Source: a virus (taxonomy: Duplodnaviria > Caudoviricetes). From it: 64,000 nucleotides of DNA. The stretch's first letter is position 1, and each line of letters begins with the position of its first letter. Shown in pieces: positions 1,291 to 47,027 of this stretch. The notes under the pieces were generated by a model. It was not told the origin of the DNA. It was given only the letters and a program-made list of their open reading frames with translations, and did not search any database. The position numbers and the translations under genes were made by a program. The DNA lies in the IMG/VR virus record IMGVR_UViG_3300020112_002303, positions 38,258 through 102,257 of that record; one strand, written 5' to 3'.

Positions 1291-1331
1291 TGTTCGTTAC
1301 CTTCTTTTGTTAATTTATTGTTATACAAAGA

Positions 1332-1359
1332 ATATCACATAATTCTATTTATGTAAAGA
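1332..1359. other. dif-like site or operator palindrome in the divergent intergenic region
   Basis: ATATCACATAA-TTCTAT-TTATGTAAAGA has 11-6-11 architecture. It overlaps a possible leftward sigmaA promoter (TTTACA-17-TATTCT). Confidence 0.35.
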
Positions 1360-1466
1360 TATTTTTTAAAACTAACCTTATTTCATTGATTTTTTAAAAT
1401 ATGCTTTATTTTTTTGATAATAGATGTTATACTATAATCAACAAAATTTGTAAGGAGGGTTCTATT

Positions 1467-4846: not shown

Positions 4847-5446
4847 ATGATTAAACCTGCAAACAGATTTGATAATTATACTTACAGGGTATCAGAGTAT
4901 AATGTTGCAAGTTCCCTTTTGGGTTCTACGCTCGAAGCAGGAACATTTGTTAAGGTTAACTCTAATCACGAGTTAATTAAGGCAACTGGTGCTTCAGGTG
5001 AAAAAGCATTCATTATGACATCCTCTGAAGTAGTCGGAAGAGATACTCTTACCGGAAGAGCAACTTGTAAGGGCAATATCCTTATGGGTGCTCATATTCT
5101 TGATACCGATCAGTTTGATAAAACCGAAGGTGTTACTTATGCGCCGGGCAAGGCATTAAAAGTGTCTGCAAACGGTATTCTTACACCTGTAACAATAGCC
5201 GTTTATAATGCTGTAACAGGTGAAACCGCTCCTGAATGGGTAGCAAATACCTATTATTCAAAGAGTGGCAACGCATATATTTTGACAACTGAACAGCCTG
5301 CTGATTGGGCAACAACCTATACATCTTATTATACAAAGTCAATAGTGGATGGTGTTGATGCTTCAATCGTAAAAGGCACAATTGTTGCTTATGCTCTTTC
5401 CGGAGTACAAAGCGACGGCACAATTAGGGTTTATATTTTGCCGTAA
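4847..5446 (+). CDS. Capsid decoration/cement protein paralogue 1, with inserted Trp/Tyr repeat module
   Basis: Immediately upstream of the capsid gene; clear paralogue of 5502..5975 (NRxDxYxYRxS...GEKxF...GRD...G+Q.D.TIRVYILP). Confidence 0.6.
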   Translation: MIKPANRFDNYTYRVSEYNVASSLLGSTLEAGTFVKVNSNHELIKATGASGEKAFIMTSSEVVGRDTLTGRATCKGNILMGAHILDTDQFDKTEGVTYAPGKALKVSANGILTPVTIAVYNAVTGETAPEWVANTYYSKSGNAYILTTEQPADWATTYTSYYTKSIVDGVDASIVKGTIVAYALSGVQSDGTIRVYILP

Positions 5447-7106: not shown

Positions 7107-7141
7107 TACGAGAGCAGGGATTTTCCTTGCTCTCGTATTTT
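7107..7141 (+). terminator. Rho-independent terminator after the capsid gene
   Basis: TACGAGAGCAGGGA-TTT-TCCTTGCTCTCGTA followed by TTTT. Confidence 0.7.
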
Positions 7142-7166
7142 AAAATAACAACAAAGGAGAACAATT

Positions 7167-7595
7167 ATGATTACAATTAAAGTAAAATATATCGGCAATG
7201 ACGAAGAAGGAATTCTTATTGGCGGAGAACTTTGTCGACCAGGAAAAGTGAGAGAAGTCACTATTGATGAAGAACAATTGGAAGTTCTCAAGAAAGCGAC
7301 GAAGAGAGTTCCTCCGTGGATTGAATTAACTGATTACGATGTAGCTGTTGCCGAAGAAACTGTTGAAAAAACTGTTGAAGAACCGGTTGTTGAAGAAACA
7401 GTTGTTGAAGAAACAGTTGTTGAAGAAACAGTTGTTGAAGAAACAGTTGTTGAAGAAACAGTTGTTGAAGAAACAGTTGAAGAAACAGTTGAAGAAACAG
7501 TTGAAGAAACAGTTGATGAACCGGCTGTTGAAGAAGTAGCTACTGAAAAAGTAGCCGAAGAAGCTCCGAAGACCAAAAAAGGTCGCAAAAAATAA
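7167..7595 (+). CDS. Small virion-associated protein with (VVEET)n acidic tract and basic tail
   Basis: RBS AAAGGAG; post-capsid position; low-complexity tract; ends APKTKKGRKK. Confidence 0.6.
   Translation: MITIKVKYIGNDEEGILIGGELCRPGKVREVTIDEEQLEVLKKATKRVPPWIELTDYDVAVAEETVEKTVEEPVVEETVVEETVVEETVVEETVVEETVVEETVEETVEETVEETVDEPAVEEVATEKVAEEAPKTKKGRKK
7386..7511 (+). repeat. Coding tandem repeat: GTTGTTGAAGAAACA x6 then GTTGAAGAAACA x3
   Basis: Read directly from the sequence; in frame within 7167..7595. Confidence 0.9.
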
Positions 7596-24906: not shown

Positions 24907-24921
24907 TAGGGGGAAATCACT

Positions 24922-25248
24922 ATGTCGCAATTGCTTATGGAAAAGATGGCAATGATAAGAAATACTGTTGAAAGTTCAAATATCCGCTCTATTGGATATA
25001 GTCCAATTAGCAGAAAAATGGAAATTGAATTTAAAGGCGGAAGCATTTATCAATACAAGGGTGCATCAGCAAATGTGTATAAAAACATTATGGATGCGGA
25101 GTCGAAGGGTAAATATTTTCATAAAAATATCAGATATAAGTTGCCATATAAACAAGTATTAAATAAAGATGGTGAAAAAGTTAAGAGCGATTGGAAAGTA
25201 TTAGATAATCCTAAATCTAAAAAGAAAACAGATGAAGACAAATCATGA
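24922..25248 (+). CDS. KTSC-domain protein with MSQLLMEKMA leader
   Basis: MIRNTVESSNIRSIGY...EIEFKGGSIYQY...VY..IMDAESKGKYFHKNIR is a canonical KTSC domain, preceded by the 10-aa tag. Confidence 0.85.
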   Translation: MSQLLMEKMAMIRNTVESSNIRSIGYSPISRKMEIEFKGGSIYQYKGASANVYKNIMDAESKGKYFHKNIRYKLPYKQVLNKDGEKVKSDWKVLDNPKSKKKTDEDKS

Positions 25249-25277
25249 TATTTTAAAATGCAAATTTTAACAAGAAG

Positions 25278-25305
25278 AAAAAAGAGGGCCTGAGCCCTCT
25301 TTTTT
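25278..25305. terminator. Bidirectional terminator
   Basis: AAAAAAGAGGGC-CTGA-GCCCTCTTTTTT between convergent genes. Confidence 0.85.
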
Positions 25306-25801
25306 ATTTGAAATAGTGATTTTCTATATAACTTTTTTCGTTAAGCCATAGATTCAGATAATTAACCCTTGCGATATTTTTATCTTTTCTTTTCAAATTG
25401 CAATAATCCCTTTTAATGTAATTCATATAAATATCCGTAACTTTTGCAAGAGATATCTTTTTTATGAGTTCTTTTGTTTGAGTTGTTGCATTTTCAAAAA
25501 GCTTACTATTCATGTGTCCCGTTATAAATAAAGATTGTGCGTCTGTTTTCTTTAACAAATTCTTTATTTCGTCACTTTCTTTTTTGTCACGCAGAATTTT
25601 TCTTTGTGCTTTTTCGATTTCCTTTCTAATTCGAGAAATATCTCTGTTTATCTTGCTAATATTTCTGTTAACAATTGGTCCTGTGATTTGCTGTCCCATA
25701 CCTTTAATGGTTCCGATTTTGCCTGATGTGCTTTCGTACAAAAATTGGTGTAAATCCTCCTTTTCTTTGATTGTGTTCCTTAATGTTTTTTCTAAATTCA
25801 T
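25304..25801 (-). CDS. Basic coiled-coil hypothetical protein (own promoter and terminator)
   Basis: Start moved to ATG 25801 (RBS AAAGGAG); promoter motif at 25822-25840. Confidence 0.6.
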   Translation of the reverse strand: MNLEKTLRNTIKEKEDLHQFLYESTSGKIGTIKGMGQQITGPIVNRNISKINRDISRIRKEIEKAQRKILRDKKESDEIKNLLKKTDAQSLFITGHMNSKLFENATTQTKELIKKISLAKVTDIYMNYIKRDYCNLKRKDKNIARVNYLNLWLNEKSYIENHYFK

Positions 25802-25821
25802 TTTTTTACTTCTCCTTTGTT

Positions 25822-25840
25822 TTTTATTACTTATACGAGA
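25822..25840 (-). promoter_or_regulatory. Phage promoter motif TCTCGTATAAGTAATAAAA
   Basis: Exact copy about 20 nt upstream of the start codon. Confidence 0.7.
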
Positions 25841-25870
25841 AAACAAAAAAAGAATAAGAAGGAATCCTTC

Positions 25871-26092
25871 TTATTCTTCGTTTTCTTGTTCGGTGTTTTT
25901 GTTGATAACATATACGCCTATCAAAACTATACTTATTATAATTCCGACAATCATAATAAATTTCATTGCGTCCGGTAATGTGTTTTCAAATTTTGTTGAT
26001 ACATATTCAACAATGCCTGATATTGACATAAATGCTAATATTCCTATTACTGTTGCTATTATTTTTATTATTATCCTTGTTGCTGTTTTCAT
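25871..26092 (-). CDS. Small two-helix membrane protein with acidic tail
   Basis: Two hydrophobic segments; RBS AAAGGAG; preceded by the promoter motif, followed by a hairpin. Confidence 0.7.
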   Translation of the reverse strand: MKTATRIIIKIIATVIGILAFMSISGIVEYVSTKFENTLPDAMKFIMIVGIIISIVLIGVYVINKNTEQENEE

Positions 26093-26114
26093 TTTTAAAT
26101 CTCCTTTATTTTTG

Positions 26115-26133
26115 TTTTATTTCTTATACGAGA
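26115..26133 (-). promoter_or_regulatory. Phage promoter motif TCTCGTATAAGAAATAAAA
   Basis: One mismatch to consensus, upstream of the 26092 start. Confidence 0.7.
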
Positions 26134-26143
26134 AAAGTGACAT

Positions 26144-26173
26144 AAAAAAGAGAGCCGAAGCCCTCTTTTTTTT
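26144..26173 (-). terminator. Rho-independent terminator
   Basis: Minus strand AAAAAAGAGGGC-TTCG-GCTCTCTTTTTT. Confidence 0.8.
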
Positions 26174-26663
26174 ATTCTTCATCTTCATCGAATTCAACTT
26201 CTATTGAATCGTCTTCAGTTTCTTCGTCATCTGTTTTTGATTTTGTTAATACATTTAATGCTAGTAATGTACCTGCTAAAAATCCTAATGATGCATAAAA
26301 CGCCCTGTCAACCGCTCTTAATTCTGCGTCCGATAAATCATCTTTATTGTCAATGTTACGTAATGCCAACATAGCTTTAATTGCTTGAAGTTTTGAAATT
26401 GTTTCATCATTGTTTTTGATTTCTCGTTCTAACAAACTCTTTTCTTCTGCTGTTGCTTTAAACATTTTGCTTTGTGCTTCTTTGTTAGCCTCAAATAGAT
26501 TTGTAATATCCTTATCTATTTTTTTGTTTTCCGATTTAATTAAAATTTTTACTTTTCCTGTACTGATTAGTCCTCTGTTGAACTTTTTCATCTCCTCTGT
26601 AATTTTATCGAGTCCTCTGTTTGCCTTGTAAATAATTGCCTCTGTGCTTGTTTGTTTTTTCAT
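26172..26663 (-). CDS. Coiled-coil protein with C-terminal TM helix and acidic tail
   Basis: Start moved to ATG 26663 (RBS AAAGGAG); ASLGFLAGTLLALNVL then DDEETEDDSIEVEFDEDEE. Confidence 0.65.
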   Translation of the reverse strand: MKKQTSTEAIIYKANRGLDKITEEMKKFNRGLISTGKVKILIKSENKKIDKDITNLFEANKEAQSKMFKATAEEKSLLEREIKNNDETISKLQAIKAMLALRNIDNKDDLSDAELRAVDRAFYASLGFLAGTLLALNVLTKSKTDDEETEDDSIEVEFDEDEE

Positions 26664-26686
26664 TTTAAAAATCTCCTTTGTTTTTA

Positions 26687-26705
26687 TTTTATTACTTATA
26701 CGAGA
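26687..26705 (-). promoter_or_regulatory. Phage promoter motif TCTCGTATAAGTAATAAAA
   Basis: Exact copy. Confidence 0.7.
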
Positions 26706-26716
26706 AAATAAAGCAT

Positions 26717-26745
26717 TTGACAAATACAACCAATTGTGTTATATT
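26717..26745 (+). promoter_or_regulatory. sigmaA-type promoter TTGACA-17-TATATT with TG extension
   Basis: Near-consensus; points into a short ORF-less transcript that ends at a terminator. Confidence 0.7.
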
Positions 26746-26751
26746 GATTAT

Positions 26752-26886
26752 GGACAATATAAATTGTCCTCGATTCTTTTTCATTTTCTTCTTTCCTTTC
26801 CATTTTAACCTTTCATTTTATCGGCTTCATTTTTAACCTCCTAAAAGCAAAAAAGCCCACAGGACAAAAATCCTGTGGACTTTTTG
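26752..26886 (+). ncRNA. Candidate small RNA with tandem anti-AUG / anti-Shine-Dalgarno modules
   Basis: Promoter upstream, 5' hairpin GGACAAT..ATTGTCC, pyrimidine-rich body with four CATTTT units, 3' terminator CCACAGGA..TCCTGTGG-ACTTTTT. Confidence 0.5.
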
Positions 26887-26929
26887 TTTTTGTTAGTGTA
26901 TAATTATATAAACAAAAAGGAGTGGTTGA

Positions 26930-27808
26930 TTGGTGAAAGAATTATCTTCTTATATTTTAGAAAAAATTGCCGCAGCAAGAAAATTCGGCGATGCGGAATC
27001 GGAAGAAAGGGAATTGATACGCCGTGTGCAACAGAATGATGATCCCATTGCAATGGCACAACTTTTAATGAGGTACAGAGGACTTATTAACTCTGTCATC
27101 GCGAAGACGAGGCTATACGACGTAGTCGGCGAACAAACTGCAGGTCAAATGGCTCAAAACGCTTTTATAAATATTGTGAAGAATAAGGCAGATGTAAAAA
27201 ATCTTACATCTCAACCCAAAACTTACATTCATTCTTCCCTTGAGGGCACTCTTCGAAATCTTAAAAAAGATTATTCGGGCGGCGCCGCTCGTATGTCGCA
27301 AGCTCTCGAAGGCTATAAAAAAGTAATTGATATTGCGAAAAACCAATTATCAAGACAGACAGGGAAAGACCCAAGTACAAAAGAAATTTATAGTTATGCT
27401 AAAAATGTTATGGGTATTACGGCGAAAGATTTCACACCCGATGTAATTAACAGAATAGAAGATTACAAAATAAATGAATGGCAAGGGTCAAGACAGTACG
27501 GAAAATCTTCCGCTAACGGCAATGCTGAGGCGTTGTCTTTTGAAGATGTTTTCGGTGTTTCGTCAAAGAAGCCCGCAGACTTACTCAAAGCCAATAATGA
27601 AAATCAAATCGTTCTCGAAGAAATAAACGCTTTCACTCAAAAAACCAACGAAAGACGATATTTAAAGCAAGTATACAAAGTTGGTCCTTATGTGGGCACA
27701 ACAATGTCTCGAAATGCAATAGCCATTAACAATGGTATTACCAACTATAACGGTCAAAAACTATTGACAGAATTCAGAAAATATCTTGAAAAGAAAGGTC
27801 ATATATAA
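26930..27808 (+). CDS. Divergent sigma-70-family (SigF/G/B-like) sigma factor with EKIA leader
   Basis: EERELIRRVQQNDDPIAMAQL...LINSVI (region 2.1), KTYI...GTLRNLKKDY..AR (2.3-2.4), AKNQLSRQTGKDPSTKEI (region 3), ERRYL..VY...MSRNAIAINNGIT (region 4). Confidence 0.7.
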   Translation: MVKELSSYILEKIAAARKFGDAESEERELIRRVQQNDDPIAMAQLLMRYRGLINSVIAKTRLYDVVGEQTAGQMAQNAFINIVKNKADVKNLTSQPKTYIHSSLEGTLRNLKKDYSGGAARMSQALEGYKKVIDIAKNQLSRQTGKDPSTKEIYSYAKNVMGITAKDFTPDVINRIEDYKINEWQGSRQYGKSSANGNAEALSFEDVFGVSSKKPADLLKANNENQIVLEEINAFTQKTNERRYLKQVYKVGPYVGTTMSRNAIAINNGITNYNGQKLLTEFRKYLEKKGHI

Positions 27809-46530: not shown

Positions 46531-46558
46531 AATATAACACAAAAACCGTAAATGTCAA
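46531..46558 (-). promoter_or_regulatory. sigmaA-type promoter TTGACA-16-TATATT
   Basis: Ends TTGTGTTATATT, as the promoter at 26717 does; drives 46454 and the helicase operon. Confidence 0.65.
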
Positions 46559-46670: not shown

Positions 46671-47027
46671 TTATGCCGGTGTAGCAAGCGGAACATAACA
46701 TTCCGGACACTCAAATGAATCTTCGTATTCTGTTTCGAATCCTAAAGCCTTTGCGAAATCATATCTTTCTTCCGGTGGAACAGCATTAACAAGATAATAT
46801 CTTGGATCAACGCCTTCTTTTCTGCATATATCAACAATTTTATTTGCCGAACCACAAAAACCCTTTTCATAAATAAACTTTTCTATTTTAGCAAACACCT
46901 TGTCAGAAATTAAATCTGCGAGACTTTGCTTTAATTTTCCCAATGCCTTCTTTATCTTTTGAAGAAAATTCATTCTGCTCCAAATATCTTTTAGCATTCT
47001 TCTTACGAAACCATTTTTCTTTCTCAT
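46671..47027 (-). CDS. Hypothetical protein with C-terminal CPEC
   Basis: Coupled to the upstream ORF (ATGA overlap). Confidence 0.5.
   Translation of the reverse strand: MRKKNGFVRRMLKDIWSRMNFLQKIKKALGKLKQSLADLISDKVFAKIEKFIYEKGFCGSANKIVDICRKEGVDPRYYLVNAVPPEERYDFAKALGFETEYEDSFECPECYVPLATPA

Follow-up and report, generated by a model that had tools for sequence, protein, structure and literature searches.

A candidate CU-rich non-coding RNA antisense to a cassette-like gene start in a large tailed phage

The 266-bp divergent gap between the gene c1 and a sigma-like gene of an uncultured phage raises the question of whether a sequence filled with complements of translation initiation sites encodes a small regulatory RNA or preserves the remains of a gene start on the opposite strand. 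We analysed this gap within a window of 64,000 nt, which corresponds to bases 38258–102257 of a source genome represented by a single 102,257-bp contig with a G+C content of 34.8%; positions below are those of the window unless the genome is named. The contig encodes a tail sheath, a DNA polymerase, a primase and helicases and therefore is that of a large tailed phage; its genes have strong ribosome-binding sites of the AAGGAGG type, and TGA serves as an ordinary stop codon across the genome. The first-pass annotation had proposed that the gap contains an RNA of about 135 nt that acts as a multi-target translational repressor, with a chain of micro-ORFs on the minus strand as the alternative. 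The coordinates of all the features considered here are given in Table 1.

Table 1. Features of the divergent gap and of related sites in the window.
Feature	Position	Strand	Description
Host sigma-A-type promoter	26717–26745	+	TTGACA-17-TATATT; 11/12 matches, TG upstream of −10, Gram-positive TGTG −16 element
7-bp hairpin	26752–26769	+	GGACAAT-ATAA-ATTGTCC; begins at predicted +1
CU-rich, G-poor body, predicted single-stranded	26770–26848	+	79 nt: 41 T, 20 C, 14 A, 4 G
Anti-start-site module 1	CAT 26782 / CCTTTCC 26795–26801	+	
Anti-start-site module 2	CAT 26801 / CCTTTC 26809–26814	+	
Anti-start-site module 3	CAT 26828 / CCTCCT 26837–26842	+	
Predicted intrinsic terminator T2	26850–26885	both	−21.7 kcal/mol on plus, −24.0 kcal/mol on minus
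Putative promoter of the sigma-like gene	26876–26904	+	TGGACT-17-TATAAT, context TGTATAAT; 10/12 matches, downstream of T2
Sigma-like gene	start GTG 26933	+	other flank of the gap
c1	26663–26172	−	163 aa, coiled coil and C-terminal membrane helix, no family
Motif promoter of c1	26687–26704	−	CTCGTATAAGTAATAAAA; divergent from the plus promoter at a distance of 12 bp
c0, promoter-less cassette-like gene start	26696–26842	−	AGGAGG 26842–26837, ATG 26830–26828, in-frame TGA 26815–26813
Predicted terminator T1	25278–25305	both	closes the other end of the block
Motif copies, exact or one mismatch	49149–49132, 48873–48856, 26704–26687, 26132–26115, 25839–25822	−	
Motif copies, 2–3 mismatches	57495–57478, 802–785, genome position 16360	−	
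Predicted duplex with start	48808		−20.9 kcal/mol, rank 2/113; covers SD and AUG
Predicted duplex with start	57357		−18.7 kcal/mol; over SD and AUG
Predicted duplex with start	728		−18.1 kcal/mol; over SD and AUG
Predicted duplex with start	26092		−17.3 kcal/mol; over SD and AUG

The plus strand of the gap has the anatomy of a compact transcription unit. The promoter, the 5' hairpin, the four CAT trinucleotides, the three anti-SD elements and the terminator listed by the first-pass annotation were all found where it had located them. The start point was placed by the usual spacing from the −10 element, and on this basis the RNA would begin with the hairpin, the sole inverted repeat of its kind in the genome, which could be either a 5'-terminal stabilizer or an operator-like palindrome. 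Each of the three modules combines an anti-AUG with an anti-SD, while the fourth CAT, at position 26814, has no anti-SD partner. Terminator T2 begins about 100 nt beyond the hairpin at the predicted +1; its plus form is an 8-bp GC-rich stem with an A/U extension and a T-run, and on the minus strand a 16-bp stem precedes T6GCT4.

The predicted fold of the RNA is more stable than those of all of its shuffled versions (200 of 200, z = −4.5) and leaves the CU-rich body open. In the predicted ensemble, the three modules (CCUCC and two CCUUUC) are 96–98% unpaired. No SD-led ORF was found on the plus strand of the unit, and the promoter, the terminator and this lack of coding potential support in silico the claim of an independent unit of about 135 nt. 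A search of Rfam at an E-value threshold returned terminator-driven matches alone, all far below the gathering scores.

The components of the unit are rare as well as coherent. Promoter sites with 11 of 12 matches plus the TG, or with 12 of 12, occur four times in the genome against 0.77 ± 0.67 expected from 30 Markov simulations, and all four are intergenic. The promoter at 26717 has the form TTGACA-N16/17-TTGTGTTATATT in common with the promoter at 46558–46531 (−), located ahead of a 66-aa gene and a helicase operon, and the −16/−10 block TTGTGTTATATT is identical between the two. In this genome and in the related genome G001, the promoter at 26717 is the sole strong promoter outside coding sequence that is followed by a terminator within 260 nt with no SD-led ORF between them. 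Complete modules of the form CAT-N4-10-CCTY number three, compared with 0.26 in 5000 shuffles (P = 0.0002), and the counts of CAT alone and CCTY alone are unremarkable after allowing for composition. This arrangement goes far beyond what composition gives, and therefore the sequence really carries start-site information.

On the strength of this anatomy, we regard the production of a discrete plus-strand RNA of about 135 nt as fairly likely. Host sigma-A RNA polymerase would read the stand-alone unit from about 26752 to about 26890, giving a non-coding RNA of approximately 130–140 nt with a 5' hairpin, an unpaired, G-poor and CU-rich stretch of about 79 nt, and an intrinsic terminator. As a separate observation, the word ACAGGACA has five copies in the genome, one of them in the T2 stem at 26859–26866 (+) and two forming direct repeats (AACAGGACATTG) at 46671–46643 (−), just upstream of the promoter at 46558. 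It could be a protein-binding site or a chance repetition, the copies being too few to interpret.

The neighbouring gene c1 is under a different kind of promoter. By comparing gene upstream regions, we found the 18-nt motif CTCGTATAAGTAATAAAA, which in this genome occurs on the minus strand only and has the general form (T-run)-CT[CT]GTATAAG[TA]AA[TG]AAAA, with no conserved −35 element. In this genome its copies lie 8–60 nt ahead of an SD-ATG or a tRNA; over the phage family the distance to the SD-ATG is 5–60 nt, or the motif stands directly at a tRNA 5' end. The genes concerned are small and mostly encode membrane proteins; c1 and the cassette genes c2 and c3 could be assigned to no family by searches of Pfam and PHROG.

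Used as a probe, the motif led us to relatives; it is conserved and strand-specific across a family of uncultured phages, in G001 and on the contigs L004, L013, L015, L017 and L019. G001, a complete IMG/VR genome of 166.8 kb, carries 25 copies in the forward orientation and none in reverse, and the 9.8-kb metagenome contig L004 has 12–13, with several on other contigs. In the relatives, tRNA genes often begin directly next to a copy of the motif. Repeated, strand-specific and abutting tRNA 5' ends, the motif is therefore a promoter of a phage-specific class, probably that of the phage's own RNA polymerase or sigma factor. The motif places the start of the c1 mRNA at about 26685, and the CU-rich block therefore lies outside the c1 leader.

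Several further observations concern this motif class. In the minus-strand cassettes 49077 (49132–49093) and 728 (785–740), the motif is immediately followed by a strong hairpin with a T-run, ahead of the SD; this hairpin could be either a promoter-proximal attenuator or the terminator of the upstream gene, located beyond the next promoter. The tRNAs that begin at the last base of the motif are found at 5088–5162 (−) and 5354–5428 (−) of L004 and at 1324–1399 (+) of L015. For these ARAGORN calls an A at anticodon position 34 (Tyr-ATA, Phe-AAA and His-ATG), which is unusual for bacteria and phages; the calls may be erroneous or reflect a real oddity. The sigma genes of this phage and of G001 are both preceded by TGTATAAT, at 26896–26904 of the window and at about 7000 (−) of L073. 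The sequence (A/T)GTATAAT precedes several other structural genes on the plus strand (12797, 34779), and both it and TGTATAAT resemble the GTATAAG core of the motif class, a resemblance that suggests two related promoter classes.

A likely origin of the modules emerges when the gap is read on the minus strand. A terminator hairpin, a T-run, AGGAGG, a 6-nt spacer and an ATG follow one another there as in the cassettes c2 and c3, except that the 18-nt motif is missing. Of the 12 AGGAGG-N4-9-ATG sites in the genome, nine coincide with called starts, two serve as internal starts, in frame, within a tandem-repeat gene, and the remaining one is c0. The ATG of c0 opens a five-codon ORF (MKPIK) stopped at codon 6 by an in-frame TGA, and an ORF of 35 codons (26803–26696) continues in the same frame, with this single TGA between the two.

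The body is the antisense of what resembles a cassette gene start, an origin that would account for its three anti-AUG/anti-SD modules. Judging from the layout, the modules derive most simply from the start of a fourth cassette gene in which both promoter and frame have been lost. We detected no homologue of c0 among the cassette genes or among proteins, a tblastn search with the three small ORFs gave nothing significant, and the alignment of c0 to the tandem-repeat gene scored 28, compared with 26.5 ± 3.6 in shuffles. An intact minus-strand gene of the CTCGTATAAGTAATAAAA class was rejected, the motif being absent (score <10) and the ORF being stopped at codon 6.

The tandem-repeat gene itself, in which ribosome-binding sites are stacked, lies at genome positions 16317–15856 (−), or about −21940 to −22401 relative to the window. 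Each of its repeat units holds AAAAAGGAG(G)-N-ATGGCAAAG, encoding MAK(T/A)NE..., and the SD-ATG units belong to the DNA repeat; the protein ends, like c1, with a membrane helix and an acidic tail. On the related metagenome contig L017, a pyrimidine-rich block of the plus strand (7127–7290) lies antisense to a Lys/Arg-rich ORF of 36 codons whose motif promoter (GGTATAAGAAAGAAAA) is degenerate, which shows that pyrimidine-rich blocks in this phage family normally code on the opposite strand.

G001 has 42 proteins and the structural gene order in common with this phage; it lacks a block of about 2 kb that runs from the KTSC gene (24922) over the three reverse cassettes through the terminator ending at 26885. 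This block, 24907–26886, is absent at the syntenic G001 site (L073 6946–7022) and is bounded in our phage by the two bidirectional terminators T1 and T2; either this phage has gained it by insertion or G001 has lost it by deletion. Searches of G001 and G002 for DNA resembling the candidate RNA gave just chance matches of 14–26 nt, the best of which was in the hairpin of an unrelated 5' leader.

No related sequence was found by blastn in the phage record collection, and a search of IMG/VR with the sigma protein, c1, the 951-aa neighbour, P0002 and two alignments revealed nothing beyond G001. The sigma alignment retrieved no related sequence from the JGI metagenomes. In GTDB genomes, searched with the sigma alignment and the promoter motif, the 48 motif matches were all single and attributable to chance, and by tblastn none of them proved to be a relative. 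The closer relative P0002 has a sigma protein with 46% identity, which was encountered on 21 Logan contigs of up to 19.5 kb.

If the RNA is made, its likeliest activity would be base pairing with purine-rich ribosome-binding regions, by which initiation would be blocked. We compared the CU-rich body with the 113 start-site windows; full-length RNAduplex energies were discarded, as long loops inflate them, and windowed and ungapped measures were used. A perfect complement of at least 10 nt was found in 10 of the 113 windows, compared with 3.6 ± 2.3 for dinucleotide shuffles, of which 4 of 300 reached 10 start sites. The mean longest match to a start site was 6.98, against 6.67 in shuffles. Genome-wide there are 72 complements of at least 10 nt, none longer than 13 nt, and 53 of them lie inside purine-rich coding sequence.

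The eight start sites of the motif class gave a local duplex energy of −17.3 kcal/mol compared with −13.4 kcal/mol for the rest (Mann–Whitney p = 0.0012); these sites are much more A-rich than the others, half of the bias also appears with shuffled RNAs, and the observed value is equalled or exceeded in 6 of 200 shuffles. The preference for this gene class therefore holds up weakly once composition is controlled for. The starts 423, 728, 48808, 49077 and 57357, named as look-alikes of the modules by the first-pass annotation, are indeed among the better predicted partners, and the neighbours c1 and c3 rank 35th and 59th of 113. Of the multi-target repressor that it had proposed, the independent unit and the open modules stand, but the complementarity to start sites is generic, barely above that of shuffles and never longer than 13 nt.

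Overall, these data lead us to propose, tentatively, that the unit produces a real non-coding CU-rich RNA, made by the host polymerase from the antisense of a decayed cassette start, which pairs with purine-rich starts with low specificity. Its body would be the antisense of the fourth, promoter-less and stop-interrupted cassette start, and it would act preferentially on small CTCGTATAAGTAATAAAA-class cassette genes of the phage itself, such as 48808, 728, 57357 and 26092, and possibly on host mRNAs.

Such an RNA would be a regulator of a known kind, the trans-acting CU-rich anti-SD sRNAs exemplified in low-GC Gram-positive bacteria by LhrC, RsaE-RoxS and RNAIII, rather than of a new one. LhrC and related sRNAs of Gram-positive bacteria bind SD regions via redundant single-stranded CU-rich motifs (PMC4132741). 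Like LhrC and RsaE-RoxS, the candidate is short and G-poor, has its own predicted promoter and intrinsic terminator, and carries several redundant unpaired pyrimidine-rich motifs complementary to the SD; it would likewise block initiation, and one molecule could serve several mRNAs. The candidate differs from LhrC in having no sequence or structure homology to it: the Rfam LhrC match, on the opposite strand, scores 20.8 bits where the gathering score is 110, and the UCCC of the LhrC family is absent, the motifs here being CCUCC and CCUUUC. It differs from both LhrC and RsaE-RoxS in that each motif is coupled to an anti-AUG at the SD–AUG spacing and in that it is phage-encoded. The mode of action exemplified by LhrC is established, and the anti-RBS mechanism is therefore credible, yet no specific target stands out.

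Other known systems are less close. In divergent type I antitoxin sRNAs (IstR-1/tisB, OhsC/shoB, OrzO/zorO), the complementarity to the target extends over about 18–23 nt, and the toxins are shorter than 60 aa. The candidate resembles them in that its gene lies back-to-back with a membrane-protein gene, without overlap and with a short complementarity in the 5' region; however, the neighbour c1 has 163 aa, the contiguous match is at most 11–12 nt, and c1 ranks 35th of 113 as a partner. A divergent type I toxin–antitoxin pair was ruled out, as there is neither a small hydrophobic toxin nor a match of at least about 18 nt.

The c4 RNA of P1 and P7 is processed from the operon that it controls and has defined, conserved targets (reviewed, together with prophage sRNAs, in PMC12197685). 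The candidate would likewise be a phage-borne small RNA possibly covering ribosome-binding sites of phage genes; unlike c4, it is an orphan unit, and its complementarity is generic. The anti-SD at the 3' tail of 16S rRNA reads ...ACCUCCUUUCU. With its ACCUCCU and two CCUUUC, the candidate has words in common with this tail and could compete with ribosomes for any SD, although it is a free predicted RNA of 135 nt and not a ribosomal one. To our knowledge, hardly any regulatory RNAs have been described for virulent or large phages of Gram-positive bacteria.

Only slightly less probable, in our judgement, is that the modules are nothing other than the dead remains of a minus-strand cassette and that any transcript is a by-product or has a role without pairing, for example, in loading or sequestering Rho or a pyrimidine-binding protein, in competition with the c1 promoter or in insulation of a late operon. 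The cassette layout without the 18-nt motif, the confinement of AGGAGG-spacer-ATG elsewhere to real or in-frame starts, and the joining of MKPIK and the 35-codon ORF in one frame across a single TGA all speak for this. The modules are fully explained as minus-strand start-site relics, so that no selection for an anti-RBS function need be invoked. Target complementarity barely above that of shuffles and the position in a block that is absent from G001, and possibly inserted, point the same way, and the C:G ratio of 20:4 over 79 unpaired nucleotides appears similar to that of a Rho-loading site. On the other hand, c0 shows no detectable homology to a cassette gene or protein, and a pure relic would not need the coherent set of strong promoter, +1 hairpin and terminator seen here.

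A more ambitious form of the pairing explanation appears unlikely to us. According to it, the antisense of the decayed start has been turned into a regulator, transcribed by host RNA polymerase, whose three modules silence the phage's own membrane-protein cassette regulon with its separate, phage-specific promoter class and so couple two transcription programmes, with a possible damping of the host by mimicry of the 16S anti-SD.

Still less probable is a role of the unit as the leader of the sigma-like gene, in which the promoter at 26717 would be an early sigma promoter, T2 would attenuate transcription, and the CU-rich leader of read-through transcripts would mask the sigma start. The unit is oriented toward this gene (26933), and the minimum free energy fold of 26752–26965 pairs the leader with the GGAG, GGTTGAT and GTGAAAG of the sigma start site. 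However, this fold, with an ensemble frequency of 0.0006, is missing from the centroid, the sigma start site ranks 30th of 113 as a partner, and the folding predictions offer no antiterminator as an alternative to T2. Between T2 and the gene there is, moreover, the separate TGTATAAT promoter, and this is kept in G001 without the leader: there, a spacer of 75 nt containing TGTATAAT and nothing else separates the sigma homologue (34–35% identity) from the preceding homologue of gene 23842. The sigma gene therefore does not need the upstream unit.

We consider it quite improbable that the minus strand is expressed, with the coupled micro-ORFs (MKPIK, MKG and an ORF of 35 or 30 codons) serving as a regulatory leader or encoding a small membrane peptide. 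The AGGAGG-6-ATG is perfect, the ORFs are linked by stop/start overlaps, the 30-codon ORF is hydrophobic, and the cassettes 49077 and 728 show that such hairpins can lie in 5' leaders. Against this, the minus strand of 26705–26930 contains neither a copy of the promoter motif (score <10 with a position-weight matrix built from 38 instances) nor a sigma-A-like site with at least 9 of 12 matches, and the micro-ORFs lie directly behind the 16-bp form of the terminator. The ORFs also cross the c1 promoter motif, and T-rich promoter DNA encodes hydrophobic tails; homologues of the peptides were not found by tblastn. The chain of micro-ORFs suggested by the first-pass annotation is thus left without a promoter of either class upstream, but it does explain the origin of the modules.

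Finally, it is highly improbable that the plus RNA is a leaderless mRNA for a Phe-rich peptide of 28 residues, since the ATG at the promoter edge (26750), although its frame is open to the stop at 26836, lies 4 nt after the −10 hexamer and upstream of the start point expected from standard −10 spacing (26752–26753), has no SD and yields a peptide whose Phe richness reflects the T-rich sequence and for which no homologues were found.

Taken together, our results bear on two different lessons. If the block is a relic alone, it is a warning that intergenic tandem 'anti-RBS' motifs may be start sites read from the wrong strand. Should the low-specificity RNA that we tentatively prefer exist and act on start sites, it would illustrate cleanly how an sRNA can arise from the antisense of a dead paralogue. 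It would also illustrate how a host-polymerase promoter and a phage-specific promoter regulon can communicate at the RNA level, in a phage with its own RNA polymerase and sigma factor.
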